Assembly (NCBI GenBank): GCA_015064735.1
Contig: SVRP01000004.1
Span: 12,800-76,799, forward strand
Direction of reading: 5' to 3'
DNA: 64,000 nt
Source of the DNA: Oscillospiraceae bacterium
GTDB taxonomy: Bacteria; Bacillota; Clostridia; Oscillospirales; CAG-272
The notes beneath the pieces were generated by a model. The model ran no database searches. It saw only the letters and a list, made by a program, of their open reading frames with translations, and was not told the DNA's origin. The number at the start of each line of letters is the position of its first letter. Position 1 is the stretch's first letter. The translations under genes were made by a program, and so were the position numbers. This document shows, in pieces, positions 7,072 through 44,327 of this stretch.

Positions 7072-7938
7072 ATGCGTAAATATTTGACTAAGGATTATAT
7101 ACAAGAGGGAAACAGCGTTCATATTTTTTCATCTACGAAAAGAGTTATCAGGGAAGCTGAGCATACCCACGATTTTATTGAAATCATATATATTTCCGCG
7201 GGAAAATGTATGCAGACTATAAACGGCGTTGACTATAATGTAAAGCATGGGGACATACTGTTTATCAATTACGGCAGTACACATTCATTCGAATGTGATG
7301 ATAGCTTTTCTTACGTGAATATATGCTTTTCTCCCGAAACACTCGGAGACAAGTTAGTAACCTCGGATAATGCATTTTCGCTTCTGTGTCTTACGGCATT
7401 CGATGAAATGCGAAACGATGCAAACGGAGGTGTCATATCCTTCTTCGGAAATGAGCGTAAGGAAATAGAGAATATTCTTTATGCTATGATTAGCGAGAGT
7501 AAAGAAAAACAGCCCTCATGGGGCAGGGTAACAGAAAATTATCTCAATATTCTTGTAACAAAAATGCTTAGAAAGACTCAAAGGGCGCTCCAGACCCAAA
7601 GTGTAAATAACGTATGGGAGGAGCTGTCGGAGTATATCGACAAAAATCTTGGGGGAGAGCTTACCCTTTCGAGCCTTGCGGGAAAATGCTTTTATAACCC
7701 ATCGTATTTTTCAAGAATGTTCAAGGAAAAATTCGGCACCTCACTCGTGGAATACGTAACCAGAAAGAGACTTGATTATGCTATAGAGCTTCTCGGTATC
7801 AGTGAGCTTTCGATTGAGGAAATATGCGAAAGAGCGGGATTTTCCGACAGAAGCAGCTTTTATTATGCCTTTTCAAAATACGTGGGCAGTACCCCAAGCG
7901 AGTATAGAAATGAAAAAGTAAAAAAATCCGACAAATAG
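7072..7938 (+). CDS. AraC family transcriptional regulator (cupin + HTH)
   Basis: C-terminal AraC HTH (SLAGKCFYNPSYFSRMFKEKFGTS...GFSDRSSFYYAFSKYVGSTPSEYR). Confidence 0.9.
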   Translation: MRKYLTKDYIQEGNSVHIFSSTKRVIREAEHTHDFIEIIYISAGKCMQTINGVDYNVKHGDILFINYGSTHSFECDDSFSYVNICFSPETLGDKLVTSDNAFSLLCLTAFDEMRNDANGGVISFFGNERKEIENILYAMISESKEKQPSWGRVTENYLNILVTKMLRKTQRALQTQSVNNVWEELSEYIDKNLGGELTLSSLAGKCFYNPSYFSRMFKEKFGTSLVEYVTRKRLDYAIELLGISELSIEEICERAGFSDRSSFYYAFSKYVGSTPSEYRNEKVKKSDK

Positions 7939-8028
7939 TGTCTCTAAAGTAAAAATAAAGTATTTCCAATCCTTCCTTTCGGTGATATAATTTAACTGTA
8001 ATATATTACCGAAAGGGAGGATCTTTTT

Positions 8029-9507
8029 ATGCATAAAAACGTACAAATTAAGCTTAATCAAAATGAATATCGCGAAAAGGTATATGCTTGCTGGTTGGGA
8101 AAGAATATAGGAGGAACCATGGGTACACCTTATGAGGGAACTCACGATTATCTCGACATTAAGGGCTTTGCGTCCGAAGCAGGCGCGCCTCTACCCAACG
8201 ACGACCTTGATTTACAGCTTGTATGGCTACATGCTGTTGAGCAGATAGGCAGTCGCGCCATAAACGCATCTACTCTCGGAGAATTCTGGCTTTCATTCCT
8301 TCCTCCTCACTGGAACGAATACGGCATAGGCAAAATAAATATGAAGAGAGGACTTATTCCGCCTCTTGCAGGAGATTACAATAACATCTGGAAGCACTCC
8401 AACGGAGCATGGATACGTACCGAGGTGTGGGCTTGTATGGCTCCTGCTTGTCCCGACATTGCGGCAAAATACGCAATTGAGGACGCAAAGGTAGACCACG
8501 GAATGGGCGAGGGTACGTATGCTGCGGCATTTGTAGCATCAATGCAGTCTGCGGCTTTCGTAGTCAAGGATATAAGAAAGTGCATAGACATCGGACTTTC
8601 TCAAATTCCCGAGGATTGCCGTATGTACGACAGTATCCGTATGGCTATCGACCTTTACGACGCAAAGACTCCCATTAAGGATGCGCGTAACGCTATCCAG
8701 CAGAGAAATGCCGATATAGGCAACGGTTGGTTTGAAGCCCCCTCTAATGTGGCATATGCAGTGCTTGGACTTCTTTACGGAGAGGGAGATTTCAAAAAGA
8801 CTATGATATACGCCATAAACTGCGGAGATGACACCGACTGTACCGGAGCGACCGTAGGCGCGACACTTGGAATTCTCGGCGGAATGGAGATGATACCTGA
8901 GGATTGGAAGGCTCATATCGGAGACGATATCGTAACTATCTCCATAGACCTTGGCGGTGTGTGCCGTAAGGTCCCCAAGACCTGTACAGAGCTTACCGAG
9001 CGTGTAGTTGCCCAGACTCCCCACCTTCTTTTCGATAACGACGCACCTGTTGTTCTTACCGACGGCGAAAATGAGATCCCCGAAAATATCGATGAAATCA
9101 TAGCTTCCTCGTGTAGCACAAGAAATATTCTTGAAGCAACCAAGCCGTATTCCATGCACTTTGACTTTACCTTTGCAAGCGCGGAGGTTACTCTCGACAG
9201 AGCACCCGATATAGCTCCTAACGGAGAAATAGGTGTTCATATAGACTTTATAAATAACCAGCTTGTTTACGATAGAGGCTACTACAACCTTAGCCTCCGT
9301 TGGTGGCTTCCCGATGGATTTGTTGCAGAGGGAGGCAGACAGACTCTCATGCTTCCGAGAAAGGATAAAAAGCAGACGGGTATGATAAGCGTTGACTTCA
9401 CCTTGAAGGCAGGCGAGCAGGTAGCATCCTCTAACCGTTGTGTTCTTGAGGTTGTAGCAGAGGGCAGACATACTCCTATGTATATACCTGTATTGCTTTT
9501 AGGTTAA
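8029..9507 (+). CDS. ADP-ribosylglycohydrolase family protein with about 170-aa C-terminal extension
   Basis: GKNIGGTMGTPYEG, NDDLDLQ and NCGDDTDCTGATVGATLG are family hallmarks. Confidence 0.85.
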   Translation: MHKNVQIKLNQNEYREKVYACWLGKNIGGTMGTPYEGTHDYLDIKGFASEAGAPLPNDDLDLQLVWLHAVEQIGSRAINASTLGEFWLSFLPPHWNEYGIGKINMKRGLIPPLAGDYNNIWKHSNGAWIRTEVWACMAPACPDIAAKYAIEDAKVDHGMGEGTYAAAFVASMQSAAFVVKDIRKCIDIGLSQIPEDCRMYDSIRMAIDLYDAKTPIKDARNAIQQRNADIGNGWFEAPSNVAYAVLGLLYGEGDFKKTMIYAINCGDDTDCTGATVGATLGILGGMEMIPEDWKAHIGDDIVTISIDLGGVCRKVPKTCTELTERVVAQTPHLLFDNDAPVVLTDGENEIPENIDEIIASSCSTRNILEATKPYSMHFDFTFASAEVTLDRAPDIAPNGEIGVHIDFINNQLVYDRGYYNLSLRWWLPDGFVAEGGRQTLMLPRKDKKQTGMISVDFTLKAGEQVASSNRCVLEVVAEGRHTPMYIPVLLLG

Positions 9508-9588
9508 GACTCTTGGTTAAAAATTAAAAAAAGTTTTATGGCTTTTTGGTGTTTTTGCCCATGGCGAAAAAAAGAAAAATATGGTATA

Positions 9589-9628
9589 ATATCAGTTGGA
9601 AGGATATCCTTCCAACTGATATTTTTTT
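9589..9628 (+). terminator. intrinsic terminator downstream of 8029..9507
   Basis: 15-bp perfect hairpin ATATCAGTTGGAAGG-ATAT-CCTTCCAACTGATAT followed by TTTTTT. Confidence 0.7.
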
Positions 9629-9641
9629 AGGACGGTGTGAT

Positions 9642-10175
9642 ATGCTGAAAAAGGGAGGATACGTCGTTTATCGTTCGGAAGGCGTTTGCATAATTTCCGA
9701 CGTGAGAGAGGAAAGCTTTGGCGCAATAGGACAAAAGGAAGAATATTATATTCTTACCCCTGTGAGTGATCCAAGGTCTACTGTGTACGTACCTGCAAAA
9801 AATGAGAAGCTCTGCGCATGTATGCGCAAATTGCTGTGCGCAAGTGAAATAATTGAGCTGTGTAATTCACTTAAAAATGAGAGGATCGAATGGTTGTCTG
9901 ACAGTCGCGGAAGAAATAATATATACAGAGATATTATATCCGCAGGAGATCGCAGAGATTTGATAATTCTCATCAATACCATTTTAGAAAAATCAGACGA
10001 TAACCGTGAGCATGGAAGAAAGATAGTGATAACAGACGAAAACGCATTGAAAAGAGCAAAGAAAATGTTATTCGATGAATTTTCGGCATCTACGGATATT
10101 TCGTCTGAGGAAGATATTATTCCATTACTTAAAGGAGAAATATCTCTCTCGGATAAAAAAATGCTTTTGCACTAA
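9642..10175 (+). CDS. CarD/CdnL-family transcriptional regulator-like protein
   Basis: MLKKGGYVVYRSEGVCIISDVREESFG..YYILTP resembles the CarD_CdnL_TRCF N-domain. ATG 9642 lies after the terminator, and the track start at 9546 (TTG) reads through that hairpin. Confidence 0.7.
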   Translation: MLKKGGYVVYRSEGVCIISDVREESFGAIGQKEEYYILTPVSDPRSTVYVPAKNEKLCACMRKLLCASEIIELCNSLKNERIEWLSDSRGRNNIYRDIISAGDRRDLIILINTILEKSDDNREHGRKIVITDENALKRAKKMLFDEFSASTDISSEEDIIPLLKGEISLSDKKMLLH

Positions 10176-10196
10176 TAAGTGCAAAAGCTTTTTTTT
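10163..10196 (+). terminator. intrinsic terminator overlapping the stop codon of 9642..10175
   Basis: GCTTTTGCAC-TAATAA-GTGCAAAAGC followed by TTTTTTTT. Confidence 0.65.
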
Positions 10197-11361
10197 ACCA
10201 ATTTGTATTCCAGCGTTGGTTATATTCCTTTTGTGAGCAACCGCTGTCCGAATCTATACTTTTTTGTGTTGACATAGCTCTTTTGCTATTGAGCATATCA
10301 AGATAAATTTCATCGTCAATGGGCAGGGAAACAGGCTTTTTCAACCATGCCGACATATATGCGGCATTGCATATAGAAAGCTCACAAATACCTTCCTCGC
10401 CATTTGCTATAAGCCGGTCGCCGTAAAGAATAGCACGTGTGAAATTCTTAATAATCTCAAGATGTCCGAAGTAAGGCTCGTCTGTTATCCTTGTAACAGA
10501 TGGCTTTATTTTTTCGGCTTCGGGATAGAGTCTGTACTTGGATTCGTCAACAGGAAGCTCGGTGAATTCAAGTACACCGTGCTCAATGACTATTTTGCCT
10601 TTGCTTCCCGATATTTCAAGTCGGTTAGTGCCGGGATAGTCTCCGGTAGAGGTTATAAATACCCCGGTAGCTCCGTTTTCGTATCTTGCGAAAATAGTCG
10701 CATCGTCCTCGACTTCAATTTGGTGGTATTTTGCCACGTCGCAGGCTGCGCTCACTTCAATAGGCATGCCGCATATCCATTGCCAGAGGTCGAGATTGTG
10801 GGGTGCCTGATTCATCAGTACTCCGCCGCCTTCACCGTCCCAAGTTGCTCTCCAATCGCCCGAATCGTAATAGCATTGCTTTCTGTACCAGTTGGTAATA
10901 ATCCAGACAGAACGCTTGATATCTCCGATTCTGCCCTCGCTAACCAAACGGCGAGCTTCACGGAAGAGCTTGTTGGTTCGCTGATTGAACATAACGGCGA
11001 AAATTTTACCGCTTTTCTTTGCGGCTTCCACCATTTCCTTTGCCGCCTTGCCGTAAACGCCGATTGGCTTTTCCGAAAGAACGTGCAGTCCGTGCTCAAA
11101 TGCCTTTACGGCGATAGGTGGATGATAGTAATGGGGAGTGGAGATGATTACGGCGTCAACAGAGCTGCTTTCAAAAAGGGAATCTGCATCTTCAAAAATC
11201 GGAACATCGGGATAAAGAGAAGCAAGCTCCGATCTCCTTTTAGCAGAGGTGTCGCAAAGAGCGCAAAGCTTGGCACCCTCAGCCTTTCCGGAATATATAC
11301 AGGAAGCGTGAGCGGAGCCGATGTTTCCTATGCCTATAATACCAATTCTTACAGTATCCAT
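10195..11361 (-). CDS. Gfo/Idh/MocA family oxidoreductase
   Basis: MDTVRIGIIGIGNIGSAH Rossmann motif and GDWRATWDGEGGGVLMNQAPHNLD C-domain motif. ATG 11361 is 1 nt after the upstream stop, so the track N-extension is rejected. Confidence 0.9.
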   Translation of the reverse strand: MDTVRIGIIGIGNIGSAHASCIYSGKAEGAKLCALCDTSAKRRSELASLYPDVPIFEDADSLFESSSVDAVIISTPHYYHPPIAVKAFEHGLHVLSEKPIGVYGKAAKEMVEAAKKSGKIFAVMFNQRTNKLFREARRLVSEGRIGDIKRSVWIITNWYRKQCYYDSGDWRATWDGEGGGVLMNQAPHNLDLWQWICGMPIEVSAACDVAKYHQIEVEDDATIFARYENGATGVFITSTGDYPGTNRLEISGSKGKIVIEHGVLEFTELPVDESKYRLYPEAEKIKPSVTRITDEPYFGHLEIIKNFTRAILYGDRLIANGEEGICELSICNAAYMSAWLKKPVSLPIDDEIYLDMLNSKRAMSTQKSIDSDSGCSQKEYNQRWNTNW

Positions 11362-11362
11362 A

Positions 11363-12541
11363 TCAGAAGGTGCTGTCCATATTGGAGACTGTGGATGTGT
11401 TAACGGCTGCTTTTCTTCGGGAGTTCTTCGCCTTTTCAAGGATCAGTTCCTTATATTTTGCGTGATCAAAGGACTTAACCTCTATATCGGAATCGGTCCA
11501 TGCGGAAAGATGCATTGCGTTTGAGATCGTAAGACCGTTTATACCCTCGCGTCCGTCGGCAACGAGGGGAGTACCGTGAAGGATATTAGCCGCAAAGGCG
11601 CGGAAAACACCCATATGCTGGGGATTCTGTCCGTCGGTTTCCACGTCTGACTTTACCATTTCGGGGTGTCCAAAGGGAATCTTGTTTGTAGCCGAGAACT
11701 CAGGCTCGGACACAGATGTTTTCCACATAGTAAGCGACGTACCGTCCTTTTCGTTTATGGCAATTATCTTGCCCTTTTCAAGGGTAACCTCAAATCTGTT
11801 GGTTCCGGGGAAATCGCCCGTTGTTGTAATAAATGTACCCGTGGCGCCGTTTGCATACTCAACGTAAGCCGTAACGTCGTCCTCAACCTCTATGTCGTGC
11901 CACTTGCCGAAATGAAGCTTTGCGCTTATTTTTTCGGGCATACCGCATATCCACTGCCAAAGGTCAAGATTGTGAGGACACTGGTTAAGAAGCACACCGC
12001 CGCCCTCGCCGCTCCACGTAGCTCTCCAATCACCCGAATCGTAGTAAGCCTGAGGACGGTACCAGTTGGTGATTATCCAGCTTGTACGGCGAATTTCTCC
12101 AAGCTCTCCGCTCTTGATTATCTCGCGCATTTTGCGATAGAGGCAGTTTGTGCGCTGATTCATCATAATAGCAAAGGTAACGTTACACTCGTCTGCTACC
12201 TTGTTCATTTCAAGCACCTGCTCGGTGTAAACTCCCGCGGGCTTTTCTATCATAACGTGAAGCCCCTTTTTCATAGCCATAATTGCGTAGGTAGGGTGGT
12301 CGTAGTGGGGAACTGCGACACAGATAGCATCAACAAGTCCCGAATCCATCATGGCCTCAGCATCGTCAAAGCGAGCAACGGCGTCGCCAAACTCCGCCTT
12401 CGCCCATTCAAGCTTTTCGGGCTTTATATCGCATACGGCGGTGAGAATTATTTCGTCTCCCGCTTCACCCGCGGTGATCTTTTTAGCATGGGACGAGCCC
12501 ATGTTTCCAAGTCCTATTATTCCAAGTCTTACTTTTTCCAT
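11363..12541 (-). CDS. Gfo/Idh/MocA family oxidoreductase (paralog of downstream gene)
   Basis: MEKVRLGIIGLGNMGSSH; GDWRATWSGEGGGVLLNQCPHNLDLWQWICGMP is nearly identical to the block in its neighbour. Confidence 0.9.
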   Translation of the reverse strand: MEKVRLGIIGLGNMGSSHAKKITAGEAGDEIILTAVCDIKPEKLEWAKAEFGDAVARFDDAEAMMDSGLVDAICVAVPHYDHPTYAIMAMKKGLHVMIEKPAGVYTEQVLEMNKVADECNVTFAIMMNQRTNCLYRKMREIIKSGELGEIRRTSWIITNWYRPQAYYDSGDWRATWSGEGGGVLLNQCPHNLDLWQWICGMPEKISAKLHFGKWHDIEVEDDVTAYVEYANGATGTFITTTGDFPGTNRFEVTLEKGKIIAINEKDGTSLTMWKTSVSEPEFSATNKIPFGHPEMVKSDVETDGQNPQHMGVFRAFAANILHGTPLVADGREGINGLTISNAMHLSAWTDSDIEVKSFDHAKYKELILEKAKNSRRKAAVNTSTVSNMDSTF

Positions 12542-12552
12542 AATAATACTCC

Positions 12553-13317
12553 TTAATTAAATCCTTGTGCTTTAAGATATTTGTAGCTTCTTGTAAGGCA
12601 GTCGAAGGGATTCTCGCCGTAGCAGTTATCCTGTTCAACCAGCATATATTCTACGCCAACCCTTTCGGCGACCTCAAATACGCGGTCAAAGTTTATGTTA
12701 CCCTCGCCCACAACAGCCATTCGCTGCTCTCTGCTAATGATGGCAAGATCCTTAAGATGAATGCACTCAACTCTGCCCGCAAGCTTTGAAAGATACGTCG
12801 CAGGGTCTACGCCTCCAACCTGCGCCCAATATGTGTCAAAGGTGATTCCGAAAAGATCGGCGGAGAAGTCCTCGCACATGCGGTCAAGATAAAGTATCCC
12901 GTTTTCGTCTCTTTCAAATTCAACGTGATGATTATGGTAGAAAAATTTATGTCCGTTATCCTTAAAGGCGTTTATTACGGGGGTGAATTTTTTTAGGAAT
13001 TCTGCATAGGCGCTAGGCATACCCGATTTTGTATTTTGCATCATGCCAAGGCCTATATTTCGACAACCGAATATATCGTGATCTCGGCAGACCTTTAATG
13101 GGTCATCCAGCATTTTATCGGGCTTTGTGTGAGTAAGGACACAGGAAAGCCCGTTTTTAGCTAACTCGTCGCGAAGCCATTCAGCCTCAAATTCGCAGGT
13201 TCCCGATACCTGAACGGTGGTGTAGCCAATGTCAGCAATCTTTTTTAAGGTTTCTGAAAAATCCTCAAGATTTGTTGCGAAATCTCTTACTGTAAAAAGC
13301 TGCGCGCCTATTTTCAT
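12553..13317 (-). CDS. sugar phosphate isomerase/epimerase family (xylose-isomerase-like TIM barrel)
   Basis: MKIGAQLFTVRD..., HNHHVEFE and IHLKD are typical AP-endonuclease-2/xylose-isomerase-like TIM features. 4-nt overlap with the upstream gene. Confidence 0.85.
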   Translation of the reverse strand: MKIGAQLFTVRDFATNLEDFSETLKKIADIGYTTVQVSGTCEFEAEWLRDELAKNGLSCVLTHTKPDKMLDDPLKVCRDHDIFGCRNIGLGMMQNTKSGMPSAYAEFLKKFTPVINAFKDNGHKFFYHNHHVEFERDENGILYLDRMCEDFSADLFGITFDTYWAQVGGVDPATYLSKLAGRVECIHLKDLAIISREQRMAVVGEGNINFDRVFEVAERVGVEYMLVEQDNCYGENPFDCLTRSYKYLKAQGFN

Positions 13318-14168
13318 GATTTTTCTCCTATTCTTTTAAGTATTGAATTAAGTGCGGAGCAAGCTGCATCAAATGCTTCGTCATTGGAAGCATATACCTT
13401 GACTCCCGTTTTTACCGACTCGCCGTTTTCAAGCTCGGAAAGCCCCGAAAATACCTTAAGATGAGGCTCAAGGGTCATAACCGAGCCCCCTCTGCTTACG
13501 TAGTCTGTAAGTATGCAGGGAATGTTTCCGAGCCCCTCGCCCGCGGGGACTACGGTGCCGTCCGCAAGAGCGTCCTTTATGTGAATATAATCTACGTAAT
13601 CACGAAGAACGGACCATGCTTCAAGGGTGTTGACACCGCACTGAATAAAGTTTGCGGGGTCAAATACAGCCTTGATTTTTGGAAGAGCCTTGTGGATTGC
13701 AAGACAGCTTTCTGTATTTTCACCGAAAATATTTTTCTCGTTTTCGTGGCAGAGAATAATGTGGTCGGGAGTCAGCTCGCAGAATCTGTCAAGACGTTCA
13801 ATAACCTTTTCAAGGCTTGCCTTTCTGTCCTCACCCTCAGCGGGGAAAAAACTGAAAAGTCTTATTCTCGATGCACCGAGAATGTCTGCGTATTCAAGAA
13901 TTCTTTTGAATTTTTCAATATGCTCGTCAAAATCTCCGTCAAGGGCAACCTTTCCGATAGGCGAGCCCATAGACCGTACGGATATTCCTCCGTCGTCAAG
14001 CTGCTTTCTGATCTCACGTGCCTTCTCGGCGCTTATTTTTGATATATTTACATTGTCAACTCCTCGTATTTCAAGCAGGGAAATGCCGTTTCTCTTTAAG
14101 GCTTCTATCTGTCCCGAAATGAAGGGGGATGCTTCATCGGCAAAAGCCGAAAGTCTTACGTTACTCAT
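13314..14168 (-). CDS. sugar phosphate isomerase/epimerase family (TIM barrel)
   Basis: LSAFADEAS..., CHENE, IHIKDA and LEPHL patterns of the same superfamily. Confidence 0.85.
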   Translation of the reverse strand: MSNVRLSAFADEASPFISGQIEALKRNGISLLEIRGVDNVNISKISAEKAREIRKQLDDGGISVRSMGSPIGKVALDGDFDEHIEKFKRILEYADILGASRIRLFSFFPAEGEDRKASLEKVIERLDRFCELTPDHIILCHENEKNIFGENTESCLAIHKALPKIKAVFDPANFIQCGVNTLEAWSVLRDYVDYIHIKDALADGTVVPAGEGLGNIPCILTDYVSRGGSVMTLEPHLKVFSGLSELENGESVKTGVKVYASNDEAFDAACSALNSILKRIGEKS

Positions 14169-14169
14169 G

Positions 14170-15000
14170 TTATACCCCCGAATAAGCCGAGAATCCGCCG
14201 TCTACGGGAATAACCACACCCGTAACGAAGGAAGACGCGCTGTTGTCGCAGAGCCAGTCAAGTGTACCGAGAAGCTCGGAGGGCTCTCCGAAACGCTTCA
14301 TGGGAGTAGCGCCGAGAATCTTTCCCGTTCGTGCCGTGGGTGTTCCGTCGGGATTGAAGAGAAGATCCTTGTTCTGCTTTGTAACGAAAAATCCGGGAGC
14401 TATTGCGTTAACTCTTATGCCGCAACCCGCAAAATGAACGGCAAGCCACTGAGTAAAGTTGGATACCGCGGATTTAGCCGCGCTGTATGCGGGAATCTTT
14501 GTAAGGGGACGGAATGCGTTCATGGAAGAAACGTTTATTATACATCCGTCTCGGTGAAGAAGATCGGGAGCAAATACCTGTGTAGGGAGAAGCGTTCCCA
14601 TAAGATTAAGACCGAATACGAAATCAAAATCGCTCTTATCGAGATTGAAGAAGGTTTTAATATCGGTTACGGTTTCGTCTCCTTCCTCGTAATATTCGTG
14701 CGCAGTTGTAGCTCTGGGGCTGTTTCCGCCCGCTCCGTTTATAAGTATATCGCACTTGCCGAAATCGGAATGTATGCTCTTGTGGACCTGCTCAAGACAA
14801 GCCTTGTCAAGGACGTTTACTTCATATGCCTTTGCGTGTCCGCCGTTTTTGTTTATTTCCTCCGCAACAGCATTAGCTGCCTCGTAATTTAAATCGAGAA
14901 GCGCAACAGATGCGCCCTGTTCAGCCAGATGAGTCGCAAAGGAAGAGCAGAGAACACCGCCCGCACCCGTAACTACAGCAATCTTATTTTCAAACAACAT
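14170..15000 (-). CDS. SDR family oxidoreductase, probable D-mannonate/fructuronate oxidoreductase by context
   Basis: TGAGGVLC glycine motif, NGAGGN, and catalytic YSAAK. Immediately downstream of uxuA. Confidence 0.8.
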   Translation of the reverse strand: MLFENKIAVVTGAGGVLCSSFATHLAEQGASVALLDLNYEAANAVAEEINKNGGHAKAYEVNVLDKACLEQVHKSIHSDFGKCDILINGAGGNSPRATTAHEYYEEGDETVTDIKTFFNLDKSDFDFVFGLNLMGTLLPTQVFAPDLLHRDGCIINVSSMNAFRPLTKIPAYSAAKSAVSNFTQWLAVHFAGCGIRVNAIAPGFFVTKQNKDLLFNPDGTPTARTGKILGATPMKRFGEPSELLGTLDWLCDNSASSFVTGVVIPVDGGFSAYSGV

Positions 15001-15002
15001 AA

Positions 15003-16061
15003 CTATCTGTCCTTTCTATTATTTGCGCGTGATTTTTCTATACCCTCAAAAAGACCTACTATATAGGTGGCTCCCAGAGCTCTGTCGTAAAGACCGTAAC
15101 CGTATCGACCCTTCTCACCCCATATCATCCTACCGTGGTCGGGGCGAACGTATCCGTCAAAGCCGTTTTCGACGAGAGCGTTGACTATTCCAAACATATC
15201 GAGAGAACCGCATTCGGTGGGATGTCCTACCTCATAGAACTGTCGCTCCGAGGTTATTTTTATATTGCGCAGATGCAGAAAATGAATTCTGTCCGCGTAT
15301 TTTGAAGCAAGGTAAACGAGATCGTTGTCGCTTGACGCACCGAGAGAGCCTGTGCAGAAGGTAAGTCCGTTTGCCCTTGAATCAACGATTTTAAGAAATC
15401 TGTCGTAATTCTTCTCGCAGGTGATGATTCTCGGGAGCCCGAAAAGTCCCCACGGCGGGTCATCGGGATGTATAGCCATGTTGACTCCCGCCTCCTCGGC
15501 TACCGGAATAACCGCCTTAAGGAATACTGACAGATTATTCCACAGATCCTCCTCGCTTACGTTTTCGTAAAGAGCAAGAAGATCTTTAAGCTCAGAAACA
15601 GTGTAGCTTTCGTCCCAACCCGGAAGAGAAAGCCCCCCCTCTGCGGGATTCATCGTAAGCAGAGTGGCATCGTCATATGCAAGGGAGTTGGCGCCGTCCT
15701 CGTGAATATGCTCAAGCTCACTGCGCAACCAGTCGAATACGGGCATGAAGTTGTAGCAAACGCATTTTACTCCCGCGCGTCCGAGCCTTCTGATATTTTC
15801 ACAGTAGTTTTCTATAAGCTTCGGCGCGTTCGGTCCGCCGTATTTTATTTCCTCAGGAACGGGAACACTTTCGACCACCTCAAATTCAAGCCCGTTCTCG
15901 TTTGCTCGATCCTTAAGCTTTTGAATACTTTCCTCGCTCCACACCTCACCGGGCTTTACGTCGTAGACAGCTGAGACGATACCGCTCATTCTCGGTATCT
16001 GACGTATTTGCTCAAGCGTTATGGGGTCGCTTTCTCCGTACCATCTGAAAGTCAGCTTCAT
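15003..16061 (-). CDS. uxuA: mannonate dehydratase
   Basis: MKLTFRWYGESDPITLEQIRQIP is the typical UxuA N-terminus. About 350 aa. Confidence 0.93.
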   Translation of the reverse strand: MKLTFRWYGESDPITLEQIRQIPRMSGIVSAVYDVKPGEVWSEESIQKLKDRANENGLEFEVVESVPVPEEIKYGGPNAPKLIENYCENIRRLGRAGVKCVCYNFMPVFDWLRSELEHIHEDGANSLAYDDATLLTMNPAEGGLSLPGWDESYTVSELKDLLALYENVSEEDLWNNLSVFLKAVIPVAEEAGVNMAIHPDDPPWGLFGLPRIITCEKNYDRFLKIVDSRANGLTFCTGSLGASSDNDLVYLASKYADRIHFLHLRNIKITSERQFYEVGHPTECGSLDMFGIVNALVENGFDGYVRPDHGRMIWGEKGRYGYGLYDRALGATYIVGLFEGIEKSRANNRKDR

Positions 16062-17428
16062 TTCTTTTCTCCTATAAGATTTTCAATATTTTCATAGCTT
16101 ACACGGTTTACAAGCGTGTAAAGTGTTTTTTCTTCAATGACTTCTCCGTTTTCGTAAAGCTCCGCGATATAAGAGCATAGAATACGACGGAAATAATCAT
16201 GGCGTGGATATGACAAGAAGCTTCTGCTGTCGGTAAGCATACCGTAGAAGGCTCCGATATATCCAATAGAGGAAACAGCCTCGAGAACCCTTATTATTCC
16301 TACCTTGTGGTCGTTAAACCACCAAGCCGCTCCAAGCTTTACGTTTCTGAAGCTTCCGGCAATAGACGCAAGCTCGTCGTTTGCGGAGGGGTTAAGCGTG
16401 TAAAGAATAGTTTCGGGGAGACCGCCCGAGAGATCCACCGCGTCAAGAATTCGAATAATATCCTTTCCGCATACCGCTGAGCCTACACAGTCGCATCCGC
16501 AGTCTGCACCAACCGTCTCAAAAAGGCGGCTGTTGGGATTTCTGTATGCCCCCAAATGGAGCTGCATAACAAGCCCGTGCTTGCGGTACAGAATCGCAAG
16601 GTCAACGAATATTCTGCCAAGGAATCCAAGATAAGCCGAATTGTCAGCCTTATTTCCCGAAAGAACATCCGAGAATGTATCGTTAGCCTCGTTGACCGAC
16701 GCAATTCTGTCGGGAAAATCGGCAATGCCCACGTCAGTAAAAATACAGCCTCTTTCCTTGAAAAAGAGAATGCGGGCTTCTGCCGCTAAGAGAAGGTCCG
16801 AATAAGAATTTATCTCCATGTTAGTCAGAGAAGAAAGCTTTTTTATATATTCCGAATACCCGTCTCGGTTTATTGTCATAAGATTGTCTGTCCTGAACGA
16901 GGGCGAAACGGTAATATCAAAGCTGCTGTCCTTTGCAATAAGGTCGTGGTATTCAAGAGTGTCGCATACGTCGTCGGTGGTGCCCACAAAGCGAACGTTG
17001 AATTTCTTCATGAGCTTTCGGGGAGACATATGGGTTTTGCGTATGTATTCGTTGGCTCTTTCGTATATTTCCTCCGCATTTTCAGAGCAAAGGGGAGTGT
17101 CTATGCCGAAGCAGAGCGAAAGCTCAGCCTGAGACCAGACCGAAAGCGGATTGCCGACAGCAAGAGGAAGAACAGACGCGTAAGCGATAAACTTTTCTTT
17201 CCAGCTTGCCTCACCGGTAATGTATTTCTCGTCCACACCTGCGCCTCTCATAAGACGCCACTTGTAGTGGTCTCCTCCAAGCCATATCTGCCCGATGCTT
17301 TCAAATTCCTCATCAAGATAGATTTCCTTTGGAGAGAGGTGGCAGTGATAATCGTATATGGGCATATCCTTTACCGATAAATATAGCTTTTCGGCAAGAG
17401 GAGAGTTGAGTAAAAGACTGGTTTTCAT
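16058..17428 (-). CDS. uxaC: glucuronate isomerase
   Basis: PIYDYHCHLSPKEI hallmark. About 456 aa. 4-nt overlap with uxuA. Confidence 0.93.
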   Translation of the reverse strand: MKTSLLLNSPLAEKLYLSVKDMPIYDYHCHLSPKEIYLDEEFESIGQIWLGGDHYKWRLMRGAGVDEKYITGEASWKEKFIAYASVLPLAVGNPLSVWSQAELSLCFGIDTPLCSENAEEIYERANEYIRKTHMSPRKLMKKFNVRFVGTTDDVCDTLEYHDLIAKDSSFDITVSPSFRTDNLMTINRDGYSEYIKKLSSLTNMEINSYSDLLLAAEARILFFKERGCIFTDVGIADFPDRIASVNEANDTFSDVLSGNKADNSAYLGFLGRIFVDLAILYRKHGLVMQLHLGAYRNPNSRLFETVGADCGCDCVGSAVCGKDIIRILDAVDLSGGLPETILYTLNPSANDELASIAGSFRNVKLGAAWWFNDHKVGIIRVLEAVSSIGYIGAFYGMLTDSRSFLSYPRHDYFRRILCSYIAELYENGEVIEEKTLYTLVNRVSYENIENLIGEKK

Positions 17429-17564
17429 ATTTTCTCCTTATAAGGCTACAACTTTAGTTATATTATACTAAAAAAATATATACAATGGAATTGCAAAAAT
17501 AATCTATTTTTATTGTATTTATGCGCATATTGTGATATAATAACAAAAAAAGAAAGGAGATATC

Positions 17565-18398
17565 ATGAAAAAATATAAAACAGAGGGATTATCATTCGCT
17601 CATTCGATAGATGAATCTCCCGATAATAAAAGCTTCAGGCTTCACGTTCACGACGATTATGAGATACTCTGCGTTGTTTCGGGGGGCGTAGGGTATATAG
17701 TAGAGGGCAAGGAATACGATCTTAGCCGCGGCAGTATTATGATAATGAGACGCGCCGAAATACATAGACTCGTTGTAAAGAAAAATGAAAAATACGAGCG
17801 CTATATAATAAACTTTTCTCCCGAGCTGCTTGAAAAATACGGATTTGACGTAAGCATTCTCGATGCGTACAATAACAGAGCACTGGGGGAGAAAAATCAA
17901 TATATGCCATCCGATCTTTCGGGTCTTGATCCAATAGGACATATGCGTCAGATGGCAGCGGTGCTTGACGTAACTCCTAACGAAAGCGTAGCGGTTGCCT
18001 ACACGGTGGCGTTGCTTTGTTCGGTCAATACGGCTTTTTATGCCAAAAATACGTCTCTCGGTAAACCGAGAGACGTATTTGAGGAGCGGATTGTTGACTA
18101 TATAAACGAGCACATTCTTGACGACATATCCCTTTCGGATATATCCGAGTCAATGCACATAAGCGTGTCTCAGCTCAACAGAGTGTTCAACAGAATGACG
18201 GGGATGTCGGTATATAACTATATCGTTTCCAAAAGACTGGTTTATGCACAGGGAATGATATCAAGAGGCGAGAGCGCCATAAATGCCTGTCAGACCTGCG
18301 GATTTAAGGATTATTCGTCATTTTACAGGCTATATAAAAAAAGATTCGGAACGTCCCCAACGGGAGCACAGAAGAAAAATATATCCTTTAAGGCTTGA
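17565..18398 (+). CDS. AraC family transcriptional regulator, divergent from the uxaC operon
   Basis: Cupin N-domain plus AraC HTH (SLSDISESMHISVSQLNRVFNRMTGMS...GFKDYSSFYRLYKKRFGTSP). Confidence 0.9.
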   Translation: MKKYKTEGLSFAHSIDESPDNKSFRLHVHDDYEILCVVSGGVGYIVEGKEYDLSRGSIMIMRRAEIHRLVVKKNEKYERYIINFSPELLEKYGFDVSILDAYNNRALGEKNQYMPSDLSGLDPIGHMRQMAAVLDVTPNESVAVAYTVALLCSVNTAFYAKNTSLGKPRDVFEERIVDYINEHILDDISLSDISESMHISVSQLNRVFNRMTGMSVYNYIVSKRLVYAQGMISRGESAINACQTCGFKDYSSFYRLYKKRFGTSPTGAQKKNISFKA

Positions 18399-18401
18399 CC
18401 G

Positions 18402-19379
18402 TCAAAATACGTCGTGGCTATCAAAAAAGTCTGAAACCTCGCGCTCGTATCCATCCTTGTCATCAAAATATGATGTGCCGTGAGAAGCAAAGGGAACTAT
18501 AAATAAACGCTTTTCCGAGGCGCAGGCACGGTAATTCTCATAGGTCATTTCTACGGGAACAAATCTGTCGGAAGAGCCGTGTATGAAAAGGATAGGCGTT
18601 TTGCATTTTTTCATGGCATCAAGAGTGGAATATCCGTCGGGAGACATATGAAGCTTCTTTTGACATATTTTCCGGACCATGGCAGTTTGAATTCCACCGT
18701 ATGGTAAATGAAGATTTTTATTAATAACGTGCTTCCATATAGCGTGGGGGGATGTAAAGCCGCAGTCGGCAATTACACCTCTCACGTTTTTTGGCAGCTC
18801 AAAGCCTGCAGTCATGAGAACGGTAGTAGCTCCCATAGAAACTCCGCAAAGATATATCGGCAGCTTGGCAAGCTCCTTGCGGCTGTTGATATATTTTATC
18901 CACTGAAAACAGTCAAATCGCTCGATAAGACCAAAGCCGATATACTGTCCGCCGCTTTCATTCTGACCTCTTTGCTCAATATAAAGCACGTTACATCCGT
19001 TGGAGTGGAAGAATTCACAAGCCCCTCCGAAATCCTTTGCCCACGTGGTTCTCCAACCGTGGACAGCGATTACCGTGCGTAATGCACCTTCGCAAATATA
19101 AAGATGACCGACAAGGCGCGCTCCGTCCTGCGCCGTTATGCTTACCCTTTGACAGTTGCATCTGAGAAGCTTGTGCGCGCTTCCTCTGCATTCTGTTTCG
19201 ATTCTCTCAATATCCTTGCATCCGGAAATGATTCTTTTGCATCTCATACCGGGATTTACCTTGAGATTTCTGTCAAGGGCAAGCTTTATCAGCGTATGGG
19301 TCATAAGTATCGAGGATATTCCTGCAATACCGAGGATAGCAGAAGATCCGGCAAGAGCAATTTTAGAATTTCTGTTCAT
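18402..19379 (-). CDS. alpha/beta hydrolase with N-terminal membrane anchor
   Basis: N-terminal TM segment (IALAGSSAILGIAGISSILM), nucleophile elbow GVSMG, and C-terminal HG. Confidence 0.8.
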   Translation of the reverse strand: MNRNSKIALAGSSAILGIAGISSILMTHTLIKLALDRNLKVNPGMRCKRIISGCKDIERIETECRGSAHKLLRCNCQRVSITAQDGARLVGHLYICEGALRTVIAVHGWRTTWAKDFGGACEFFHSNGCNVLYIEQRGQNESGGQYIGFGLIERFDCFQWIKYINSRKELAKLPIYLCGVSMGATTVLMTAGFELPKNVRGVIADCGFTSPHAIWKHVINKNLHLPYGGIQTAMVRKICQKKLHMSPDGYSTLDAMKKCKTPILFIHGSSDRFVPVEMTYENYRACASEKRLFIVPFASHGTSYFDDKDGYEREVSDFFDSHDVF

Positions 19380-20796: not shown

Positions 20797-22215
20797 TTAG
20801 TTTTTAGTTTCCGATACAGATTCGATACTGTCCTCGGAGTTGTTTTCGGACTCAACAGCGGGAGCCGTTTCCTCAAGCACAAGATTGTCGTTTTCGGAAT
20901 ATTCTCTGCGGAATCTCTTCCACATGGGCGCGCAGATAAACAGAACGGCGCACCCTAAGAGAGATACGATTATCCAGGAGAATACGACGGGAGTCCATCC
21001 CGAGAATTGAGGAGGAAGCTTTTCGAACTTGAGGGTAGAGAGCCAAGCGAAAACGATAGTTCCCACAGAAGAACCGATGTAGGTACAAGCGTTAAGTACA
21101 CCGGAGAACAGCGAAACCTTTCCGCTCTTGACAAATCGCTTCGGAACAACAGTAATCAACATGAGATTGATTCCGTGCATATTCGCAACGATAACAGCCA
21201 TAAGAAGGATAGAGAGAAACGCGGAGTTTATCTGGAATACAAATAGCATGAGAACCGCGCTTGCAATAACTGCGGAGAAAACGAAGATCATAGCGGAACA
21301 GAAAACCTCATTTTTGAACAGCTTGCGGTGAATGAAATCGTAAGCTGCGAAGCTCAGGATTCCAAATACTGCAAGAATTACCGCAGAAAGGGTTGAAGCA
21401 AATTCGCCGAGACCAAAGGATTCCTTAATAAGGGTAGGAGCCCATTGCTCGATGCCGTCTCTCATTACACCCTGGAAGATTATGCCCATGAATATGAGTA
21501 CAAGGGGGAGAATAACGAAAGAGGGAAGCGGAATACCCGATTTTGCCTTTGAGCCTTTCTTCTTTGAAAGATCGGCATGAATGGGATTAACAAGAAGCTT
21601 GGGTGCCGAAACAGTCCAGCAAGCGCAGATAGCAGCACCCATAGCTGCGCAGATAAGCATTACCCATCTCCAGTTAAGCCCTATGAATGAGGTATCGCAA
21701 AGGAGAGGACACATTATAAAGAGAAGGATGGTTGCAAACTGAGAGCCCCACGAAACTCTTACTGCGGCGTAGGAATATTCCTCGTCGTTAAGATACATGG
21801 ACATTATGCGTACCATGGGAGGCCAGAGCATAGAATGAGCCACACCGTTTACAGACCAGAGAACAACCATGAGAACGATATTGTCAATGGAAGCAACGCC
21901 GGGAACAGCCATAAGAATATTGGTGGTTGCGGCAAGAGCAAGACCACCGGTTAACATATACTGAGCCTTTATCTTGTCTCCTATAAATCCGCAGACAACC
22001 TGACCGATACCGTACGAAATAGTCATACCGGTAAGGATCACCGCAAGCTGAACCTTAAGATCGTCGGCAACAAGACCGGTTGCCTCTCCGAAATCACGGA
22101 TAACGTAAAGCATCATGGCGTTGAAGTTCTTTCTCGTCATATAGCTTCCAAAATAAACCAACGTACAAAGCCACGAAATTATCTTCGCCTTTCTACTTAT
22201 AGCGAGTGAAGCCAT
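20797..22215 (-). CDS. MFS transporter (organophosphate:Pi antiporter-like N-terminal motif)
   Basis: 12-TM-like hydrophobic profile. YMTRKNFNAMM resembles the GlpT/UhpC Y..RKNF motif. ATG 22215 preferred over TTG 22263. Confidence 0.8.
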   Translation of the reverse strand: MASLAISRKAKIISWLCTLVYFGSYMTRKNFNAMMLYVIRDFGEATGLVADDLKVQLAVILTGMTISYGIGQVVCGFIGDKIKAQYMLTGGLALAATTNILMAVPGVASIDNIVLMVVLWSVNGVAHSMLWPPMVRIMSMYLNDEEYSYAAVRVSWGSQFATILLFIMCPLLCDTSFIGLNWRWVMLICAAMGAAICACWTVSAPKLLVNPIHADLSKKKGSKAKSGIPLPSFVILPLVLIFMGIIFQGVMRDGIEQWAPTLIKESFGLGEFASTLSAVILAVFGILSFAAYDFIHRKLFKNEVFCSAMIFVFSAVIASAVLMLFVFQINSAFLSILLMAVIVANMHGINLMLITVVPKRFVKSGKVSLFSGVLNACTYIGSSVGTIVFAWLSTLKFEKLPPQFSGWTPVVFSWIIVSLLGCAVLFICAPMWKRFRREYSENDNLVLEETAPAVESENNSEDSIESVSETKN

Positions 22216-22278
22216 GTCAATTTCTAAAATCCTTTCAAATACATCAAAAATTAAGTCTTGCAAAAATCATACCCGAAT

Positions 22279-39353: not shown

Positions 39354-39365
39354 AATCGTACAATT

Positions 39366-39472
39366 AAACAGCGGGGAGCTTGATGCGCCTATGAGCGCGG
39401 ACAGGCTGAGAGGAAGGTAAGACCTTCGACCCATTAACCTGATTTGGATAATGCCAACGTAGGGATGCCTGA
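39366..39472 (+). promoter_or_regulatory. TPP (THI-box) riboswitch
   Basis: GGGGAGC...CTGAGA...ACCC..AACCTGAT.TGGATAATGCCAACG.AGGGA conserved THI-element blocks. Confidence 0.9.
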
Positions 39473-39490
39473 ACAATAGTGTATTCATTT

Positions 39491-44251: not shown

Positions 44252-44327
44252 TGGTCGGAGTGACAGGATTCGAACCTGCGGCATCGACGTCCCAAACGTC
44301 GCGCGCTACCAGCTGCGCCACACCCCG
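44252..44327 (-). tRNA. tRNA-Pro (anticodon UGG), CCA encoded
   Basis: Minus strand reads CGGGGTGTGGCGCAGCTGGTAGCGCGCGACGTTTGGGACGTCGATGCCGCAGGTTCGAATCCTGTCACTCCGACCA. The 7-bp acceptor, D, anticodon (loop TTTGGGA) and T arms (GGTTCGAATCC) all fold. 76 nt. Confidence 0.95.

Follow-up and report, generated by a model that had tools for sequence, protein, structure and literature searches.

Can an operon that carries no glycoside hydrolase release glucuronic acid from glucuronides and pass it on to glucuronate catabolism? The question is raised by a seven-gene operon on a 64,000-nucleotide stretch of DNA from an Oscillospiraceae bacterium (assembly GCA_015064735.1, contig SVRP01000004.1, positions 12,800 to 76,799 of the forward strand), which we refer to as the window. 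The operon runs on the minus strand from 17428 to 10195 in the order uxaC, uxuA, a short-chain dehydrogenase/reductase (SDR) gene, TIM-A, TIM-B, Gfo-1 and Gfo-2, the last four coding for two TIM barrels and two Gfo/Idh/MocA oxidoreductases. The initial annotation of this DNA, made by a model from the letters, had proposed that a glucuronide-like substrate may be cleaved oxidatively, without hydrolysis, and that the product enters the isomerase pathway, and this proposal is supported as all four proteins of the module match the P2B11 set, a group of glucuronide-cleaving enzymes. The idea is thus right, yet less novel than assumed, as this P2B11 relative has already been characterised. That the operon codes for a cytoplasmic route leading from glucuronides to 2-keto-3-deoxygluconate (KDG) without a glycosidase has, in our estimate, a probability of about 80%.

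P2B11 is a four-enzyme cluster with the order Iso1-Oxido1-Oxido2-Iso2, located on a human-gut fosmid from an "unknown Gram-positive" (Nasseri et al., bioRxiv 10.1101/2024.03.25.586180; Nature 2024, 631:199; PDB 8TDI) and found by a functional screen (bioRxiv 10.1101/2024.03.25.586180). Together, its four proteins cleave α- and β-glucuronides as well as thioglucuronides by C3 oxidation, elimination of the aglycone and hydration, with Mn2+ or Co2+ raising the activity and added NAD(P)(H) being without effect, and Oxido2 is accessory and non-essential, having a minor effect in vitro (bioRxiv 10.1101/2024.03.25.586180).

Searches of the PDB with the two oxidoreductases led to the structure 8TDI, the "P2B11 glucuronide-3-dehydrogenase", with E 2e-101 and 47% identity over 381 residues for Gfo-1 (11363-12541) and E 4e-93 and 43% identity for Gfo-2 (10195-11361, 388 amino acids). 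The next-best structures followed at E about 1e-36 to 1e-39, and inositol dehydrogenases, DgpA and levoglucosan dehydrogenase at 1e-11 to 1e-21. The six published active-site residues of Oxido1 (N147, W179, R181, Y185, N205 and H209 in the numbering of the paper, corresponding to N137, W169, R171, Y175, N195 and H199 of the deposited 8TDI chain) are kept in both proteins, and the lysine of the EKP motif is kept in Gfo-1. By homology to 8TDI, Gfo-1 is predicted to be an NAD-dependent glucuronide 3-dehydrogenase of the Oxido1 type.

As the P2B11 "isomerases" are absent from the PDB, we searched a protein collection with the 8TDI sequence for a reference contig. The contig obtained encodes an Oxido1 99% identical to 8TDI and a full P2B11-type set, arranged as Iso1 (295 amino acids), Oxido1 (399), Oxido2 (333), Iso2 (289), GH3, a GPH-type transporter of the major facilitator superfamily (MFS) and UxaC. 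Both TIM proteins of the operon are xylose-isomerase-like AP_endonuc_2 barrels and have one counterpart each in this set: TIM-A (13314-14168), of a metal-dependent type, aligns with Iso1 over its full length (302 columns) with 37% identity and E 2e-52, TIM-B (12553-13317) aligns, likewise over its full length, with Iso2 with 31% identity and E 5e-33. The correspondence was one-to-one when the proteins of the window were compared with them by BLASTP, Iso1 matching only TIM-A and Iso2 only TIM-B.

TIM-B is in addition related to lyases of known structure. It matched the 3-keto-glycoside 1,2-lyases AL1/BT1 (PDB 8TCS, 8TCD and 8TCT) with E 6e-21 to 2e-12, and its residues H128-x-H130, D161-x-x-W164, H187 and E228, which are invariant in 40 homologues, align with the metal-binding and catalytic residues of AL1/BT1. 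AL1/BT1 lyases were also the top Foldseek matches (E 8e-18) of its AlphaFold2 model (mean predicted local distance difference test, pLDDT, 95.8), and the O-glycoside β-eliminase of Agrobacterium tumefaciens came at rank 8. At the sequence level this eliminase (AtOGE, 8BVK) matched over the full length with E 2e-11, and the match to AtHYD (8RO4) was weak. Both the alignments and the model suggest that TIM-B is a 3-keto-glucuronide 1,2-lyase which would eliminate the aglycone with the help of a divalent metal.

TIM-A belongs to a different branch of the superfamily. Its family has invariant E, D and H residues, and the folds nearest to its AlphaFold2 model (pLDDT 93) are Art22, the 3-dehydroshikimate dehydratase AsbF and ketose 3-epimerases, not AL1/BT1. 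Enzymes of the Art22, AsbF and ketose 3-epimerase type carry out metal-assisted enolisation beside a keto group, chemistry that would fit a hydratase or lyase role; a search on Art22 yielded nothing informative. Going by its match to Iso1, TIM-A may be the hydratase of a 2-hydroxy-3-keto-glycal and/or a lyase for the second anomer.

The three remaining genes of the operon code for a hexuronate pathway, all three enzymes exceeding the cut-offs of curated models. UxaC (16058-17428), the glucuronate isomerase converting D-glucuronate to D-fructuronate, scored 523 bits with PF02614 and 511 bits with the equivalog model NF002794 (cut-off 387). UxuA (15003-16061), the D-mannonate dehydratase forming KDG, reached 457 bits with PF03786 and 372 bits with TIGR00695 (cut-off 200), and the SDR protein (14170-15000) 427 bits with NF006132 (PRK08277; cut-off 281), the model for D-mannonate oxidoreductase, i.e. 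fructuronate reductase, making its gene an SDR-type uxuB. The operon carries the mannonate branch, uxuA and uxuB, and no separate uxaA or uxaB gene, and this tie of the module to the mannonate branch argues that its product is glucuronate. Both the list of open reading frames and family profile searches confirmed that the operon contains no glycoside hydrolase, no transporter, no kdgK and no eda, just as the initial annotation had it.

From these assignments we propose the following route. A glucuronide would be taken up by a transporter, and its C3 hydroxyl would be oxidised by NAD-bound Gfo-1 to give a 3-keto-glucuronide. TIM-B, with its divalent metal, would then take H-2 and eliminate the aglycone, leaving the 2-hydroxy-3-keto-glycal of glucuronate, which TIM-A would hydrate to 3-keto-glucuronate. 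Reduction to D-glucuronate could be achieved by the reduced cofactor of Gfo-1 or by Gfo-2, so that the net reaction of the module would be a redox-neutral hydrolysis. UxaC, the SDR-type UxuB and UxuA would convert glucuronate via fructuronate and mannonate to KDG, whose breakdown would be finished by an unlinked eda and a PfkB kinase, and the divergent AraC protein probably turns the operon on. The homologies, the catalytic residues, the structure of the operon and its recurrent linkage to uxuA, uxuB and uxaC are shown here; the substrate, the division of labour between the TIM proteins, the part of Gfo-2, the AraC effector and the transporter are inferred. A literature search on 3-keto-glucuronide intermediates found no open paper discussing them.

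The association of the module with glucuronate genes is not confined to this genome. A scan of species-representative genomes gave 374 stretches encoding a relative, of which the best 80 loci were analysed; gene counts were obtained by tblastn with the proteins of the window and refer to 71 loci with enough flanking sequence or to 38 with wide flanks. Most of the 80 loci are from uncultured gut Clostridia (Oscillospiraceae, Acutalibacteraceae, Faecousia, Ruminococcus and similar), the hosts being mostly ruminants, other animals and humans. Both TIM genes lie beside Gfo-1 in 54 of 71 loci. Among the 38 loci with wide flanks the SDR-type uxuB was found in 18, uxuA in 16 and a divergent AraC homologue at the same position in 16. 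The exact seven-gene set singled out initially is complete in 7 of these 38, and uxaC is present in 9. Pfam maps of three independently obtained contigs showed the same operon, with uxaC coming first in one, last in another and missing in the third, and no transporter inside it in any of them. Within the same taxonomic family, an Oxido1-type protein (E <= 1e-90) occurs in 51 of 101 genomes and 48 of 97 genera. One related locus (L097:1-5501) has a further cluster directly upstream of its uxuA-module operon, consisting of a GH2-like gene, Gfo/Idh/MocA, a TIM barrel, Gfo/Idh/MocA and an AraC gene of its own, and this cluster may represent another oxidative module for glycosides.

The two oxidoreductases had been called close paralogs. 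They do share the block GDWRATW.GEGGGVL.NQ.PHNLDLWQWICGMP, and paralogy holds, yet with an overall identity of 44% they are only moderately close. We asked how they relate to Oxido1 and Oxido2 in a maximum-likelihood tree of 125 oxidoreductase sequences. Gfo-1 fell within a clade of 83 orthologues, and Gfo-2 in a 38-sequence clade of its own (SH-aLRT 99) that is the sister of the Gfo-1 clade. The P2B11-type Oxido1 is placed outside both clades (support 95), with Oxido2 branching as a very distant outgroup. These clades indicate that Oxido1 was duplicated in this lineage and that the Oxido2 type is missing from it. The P2B11-like Oxido2 shares 33-34% identity with either protein, and both the BLASTP comparison (Gfo-2 being 34% identical to Oxido2 vs 43% to Oxido1) and the tree led us to reject an equivalence of Gfo-2 and P2B11 Oxido2. 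As Oxido2 is minor in vitro and no more than 31 of 70 related loci have Gfo-2 immediately after Gfo-1, we read Gfo-2 as accessory. Most likely it would act as the reductase of 3-keto-glucuronate to glucuronate, recycling the cofactor; less likely it would be a second 3-dehydrogenase with another specificity.

We then looked for conventional glucuronidases, KDG catabolism and uptake systems in the rest of the assembly, which comprises 2.11 Mb, is 95% complete and holds a single copy of the module. The search for a uidA equivalog gave a best score of 137 bits (cut-off 544), and neither GH67 nor GH115 nor GH88/105 was found in this genome. The only small GH2 protein, of 585 amino acids (C23:46551-48308, + strand), was rejected as a β-glucuronidase (GUS): it belongs to subfamily GH2_19, a furanosidase subfamily, and does not have the N-x-K motif, which is the carboxylate motif of GUS. 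Its best PDB match, 7XYR, is labelled β-glucuronidase but is an uncharacterised member of GH2_19, the characterised members of which are furanosidases (PMC12243196). The label of 7XYR exemplifies how database names could falsely imply GUS in this genome. Taking all the searches made together, the genome holds no recognisable α- or β-glucuronidase.

A KDPG aldolase (2-keto-3-deoxy-6-phosphogluconate aldolase, 211 bits) followed by a PfkB-family kinase is encoded at C16:17797-19442 (+ strand), and judged by these families the two are likely an eda-kdgK pair able to complete KDG catabolism. Upstream of the pair are genes for a DegT-type aminotransferase and a thiamine pyrophosphate enzyme. As a candidate transporter of the operon we considered the MFS gene at 20797-22263. 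It was rejected, as its product shows no resemblance to the GPH-type transporter encoded on the P2B11-like contig, two unrelated genes separate it from the operon and its adjacency to the module is not conserved.

Other functions of the module were weighed against a route from glucuronides to KDG. The four proteins might cleave no glycoside at all and might instead epimerise or isomerise a free sugar acid, i.e. a uronate or keto-uronate, via a 3-keto intermediate, thereby feeding UxaC, UxuB and UxuA. Such a function would agree with an operon that has neither a transporter nor a glycoside-specific component, with a TIM-A fold that is closest to ketose 3-epimerases, the isomerase Art22 and the dehydratase AsbF and not to known lyases, and with the presence of uxaC in just 9 of the 38 related operons, allowing for a different point of entry. 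We nevertheless judge it unlikely, given that the three essential P2B11 components are all present one-to-one with their catalytic residues kept, that TIM-B clearly belongs with the 3-keto-glycoside lyases and that the characterised relatives cleave glucuronides. The initial comparison with the levoglucosan (LgdA/B1/B2/C) and C-glycoside (DgpA/B/C) systems holds at the level of enzyme classes, as these too combine Gfo/Idh/MocA proteins with xylose-isomerase-like TIM barrels, and DgpA and levoglucosan dehydrogenase are among the distant matches of the Gfo proteins. Both systems are much farther away than P2B11, however. The levoglucosan dehydrogenase model NF052479 gave 79 and 55 bits vs a cut-off of 650, DgpA (7XR9) gave E 3e-18 and 1e-13 vs about 1e-93 to 1e-101 for 8TDI (4e-93 and 2e-101 for the two proteins), and neither TIM-A nor TIM-B matched DgpB/C at E <= 0.01. 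With the linkage to the glucuronate pathway arguing for a uronic acid product, it is very improbable that an anhydro-sugar or C-glycosides are the substrates of the module. A side path of the inositol type (IolG, IolE, IolI-like), which had been offered as an alternative, has the lowest probability of all and was not borne out. TIGR04380 (iolG) is indeed the top NCBIfam match of both Gfo proteins and TIGR04379 (iolE) the only, weak, NCBIfam match of TIM-B, but the scores, which in effect refute this reading, were 127 and 94 bits for iolG vs a cut-off of 355 and 45 bits for iolE vs 290. Moreover, inositol dehydrogenases in the PDB matched with 1e-19 to 1e-21 as compared to about 1e-93 to 1e-101 for 8TDI, iolB, iolC, iolD and iolJ are missing from the operon, and the genes conserved beside the module are uxuA, uxuB and uxaC.

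The glycosidase-free route from glucuronides to KDG, which we prefer, has to accommodate several points that weigh against it. The identities to characterised enzymes are only 31-47%. Among the lyases and hydratases of 3-keto pathways with known structures none resembles TIM-A, and the role proposed for it derives from its 37% identity to Iso1, a protein to which the main text of the preprint assigns no exact step. There is no transporter in or beside the operon, and the genome gave one weak GPH-type (MFS_2) match only. The module also departs from P2B11 in gene order, being TIM-A, TIM-B, Gfo-1, Gfo-2 here vs Iso-Oxi-Oxi-Iso, and in its second oxidoreductase, which is a 388-residue duplicate of Oxido1 and not the 333-residue Oxido2. 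A P2B11-like order, TIM-A, Gfo-1, Gfo-2, TIM-B, is found in one relative (L078), and the missing Oxido2 type does not bar membership among P2B11-type systems because Oxido2 is reported to be non-essential.

A lead to the natural substrates came from the related loci. In 17 of the 80, the module contains or adjoins a gene for a CE15 glucuronoyl esterase (L006-L009, L011, L012, L014, L016, L017, L020, L021 and L023, e.g. L014:6500-7573, and further L056, L065, L067 and L074, e.g. L056:4831-5853, with a partial match at the edge of L052). The gene is placed between uxuA and the SDR-type uxuB in one group and between TIM-B and Gfo-1 in another. The CE15 proteins of these operons scored 106-111 bits with the Pfam model GCE_fung and matched OtCE15A and MZ0003 in the PDB with E 1e-49 to 1e-56; two copies that we inspected have no obvious signal peptide. 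The genome of the operon itself encodes a CE15 protein elsewhere (382 amino acids, GHSRGGK motif, GCE_fung 152 bits), at C7:18169-19317 (- strand), together with a TIM barrel gene at C7:19327-20115 (- strand). The esterase gene is directly downstream of this gene, which codes for a xylose-isomerase-like barrel of 262 amino acids unrelated to TIM-A and TIM-B, and both come after ligA.

The linkage to CE15 in related loci, the CE15 gene of this genome, its lack of GH67, GH115 and GUS and the acceptance of α-glucuronides by P2B11 make side chains of plant glucuronoxylan and glucuronoyl esters plausible as natural substrates. A tentative, more specific proposal, which we hold to be possible but would not favour, is that in this Oscillospirales-type lineage the module is the sole means of removing α-linked (4-O-methyl)glucuronic acid from imported plant glucuronoxylan fragments and glucuronoyl esters, replacing GH67/GH115, rather than mainly a substitute for GUS on host or drug glucuronides, with Gfo-2 being a newly specialised 3-keto-glucuronate reductase or a dehydrogenase of a second specificity.

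The layout of the operon looks like that of a single transcription unit. The open reading frames of the seven genes and of the divergent AraC gene are exactly where the initial annotation had placed them, and the tight junctions it described were found as well: uxaC/uxuA and TIM-A/TIM-B overlap by four nucleotides (ATGA at 16058-16061 and 13314-13317), the remaining intergenic gaps measure 2, 1 and 11 nucleotides, and Gfo-1 and Gfo-2 are joined by TGA-T-ATG. A Shine-Dalgarno sequence precedes six of the seven starts, the exception being Gfo-2, which looks translationally coupled. The longest open reading frame of Gfo-2 begins at a TTG at 11439; we place its start at the ATG at 11361, which agrees with the N-termini of homologues. 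A bidirectional intrinsic terminator (10163-10188) with an 11-bp stem, five GC pairs and T-runs on both strands closes the operon after Gfo-2 and also the convergent CarD-like gene (9546-10175), and a scan of the intergenic sites in the operon revealed no terminator-like site of comparable strength. With one promoter region and one terminator, the seven genes are one transcription unit as far as can be read from the DNA, in line with the original proposal.

The promoter region is the AT-rich spacer of 136 nucleotides between uxaC and araC (17429-17564). It contains a promoter-like site on the minus strand (17566-17537) with an extended -10 element, i.e. a TG ahead of the -10, and no convincing operator repeats were seen in it. 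The operon leader matched no Rfam family. The AraC-family protein encoded divergently at 17565-18398 (+ strand; Pfam HTH_18, AraC_binding and Cupin_2) combines a cupin sensor domain with a helix-turn-helix domain of the HTH_18 type and, from its position and family, is the presumed regulator of the operon.

Next to araC the gene at 18402-19379 (- strand) codes for an α/β-hydrolase of 325 amino acids with a hydrophobic N-terminus, homologues of which are encoded close to the araC/module region of L018 and L054. We considered that it might be a hidden CE15, which was rejected as it gave no match to GCE_fung and no BLAST similarity to the CE15 proteins of the related operons. On the other side, just past the convergent CarD-like gene, there is another gene of the AraC family and after it one for a 492-residue protein of the ADP-ribosylglycohydrolase family (7072-9507, + strand). 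Distant homologues of the latter (25-29% identity) are encoded about 3.3 kb upstream of Gfo-1 in L033 and L041. Scanning the whole window with Rfam gave a TPP riboswitch (58.7 bits) at 39362-39482 (+ strand) and one tRNA at 44255-44327 (- strand), neither of them in or near the operon.

In this operon and in many related gut Clostridia a P2B11-type enzyme set is wired directly into a glucuronate-catabolic operon, which supports a role in harvesting glucuronic acid. If the enzymes are active, surveys of glucuronide reactivation in the gut (drugs, hormones, bilirubin, plant glucuronides) would miss these organisms if GH2 GUS genes were all that was counted, and GUS-directed inhibitors would be unlikely to act on the route because its chemistry differs. 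The recurrent CE15 in related operons provides a concrete and testable lead to plant-derived natural substrates.

Several known systems invite comparison. AL1-AL4 of Alistipes and BT2156-2160 of Bacteroides thetaiotaomicron share the stepwise oxidation, elimination and hydration, but they are periplasmic, act on glucosides and mannosides and use a DUF1080 jelly-roll protein as α-lyase and hydratase, in whose place the operon has a second TIM barrel; the similarity of the Gfo proteins to AL3-type proteins is also low (8TDF/8TDH, E about 6e-8). The A. tumefaciens route likewise employs a TIM-barrel eliminase and a hydratase on 3-keto-glycosides (AtOGE 8BVK and AtHYD 8RO4). Its enzymes, however, are farther from TIM-B than AL1/BT1, neither TIM protein of the operon is close to AtHYD, and the names of the two PDB entries give no pointer to uronic acids. 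With the classical GH2 hexuronate pathway (uidA-uidB, uxaC, uxuA, uxuB, kdgK, eda) the operon has UxaC, a UxuB-type reductase and UxuA in common, eda and a PfkB kinase being located elsewhere, but the genome has neither a uidA-type GUS nor a good GPH-type glucuronide transporter, and the oxidative module stands in the place of the glucuronidase.

P2B11 is by far the closest relative. Both systems possess a 3-dehydrogenase of the Oxido1 type in which all six active-site residues agree (47% and 43% identity) and one TIM barrel each of the Iso1 and Iso2 type (37% and 31% identity), and both are devoid of a DUF1080 protein and of evident signal peptides at the N-termini, which suggests that the proteins are cytoplasmic. 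The preprint on P2B11 mentions neither a transporter or regulator close by nor a downstream pathway (bioRxiv 10.1101/2024.03.25.586180). In the P2B11-like contig (L081:4325-10162) uxaC lies about 4.6 kb downstream of Iso2, so that a transporter and the first gene of the glucuronate pathway are nearby there, and UxaC is a neighbour common to both systems. The arrangement differs, as the module described here forms one operon with uxaC, uxuA and uxuB and has a divergent AraC gene, whereas GH3 and the GPH-type MFS transporter separate the module from uxaC in the P2B11-like contig. The host range differs as well: the loci related to ours come from metagenome-assembled genomes of the Oscillospiraceae/Acutalibacteraceae type, whereas the named relatives of P2B11 Oxido1 (78% identity) include Lacrimispora and Agathobacter. 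Classified by the homology of its enzymes, the operon adds one more case to the P2B11-type systems, which were first described in 2024, and is not a new kind of system.

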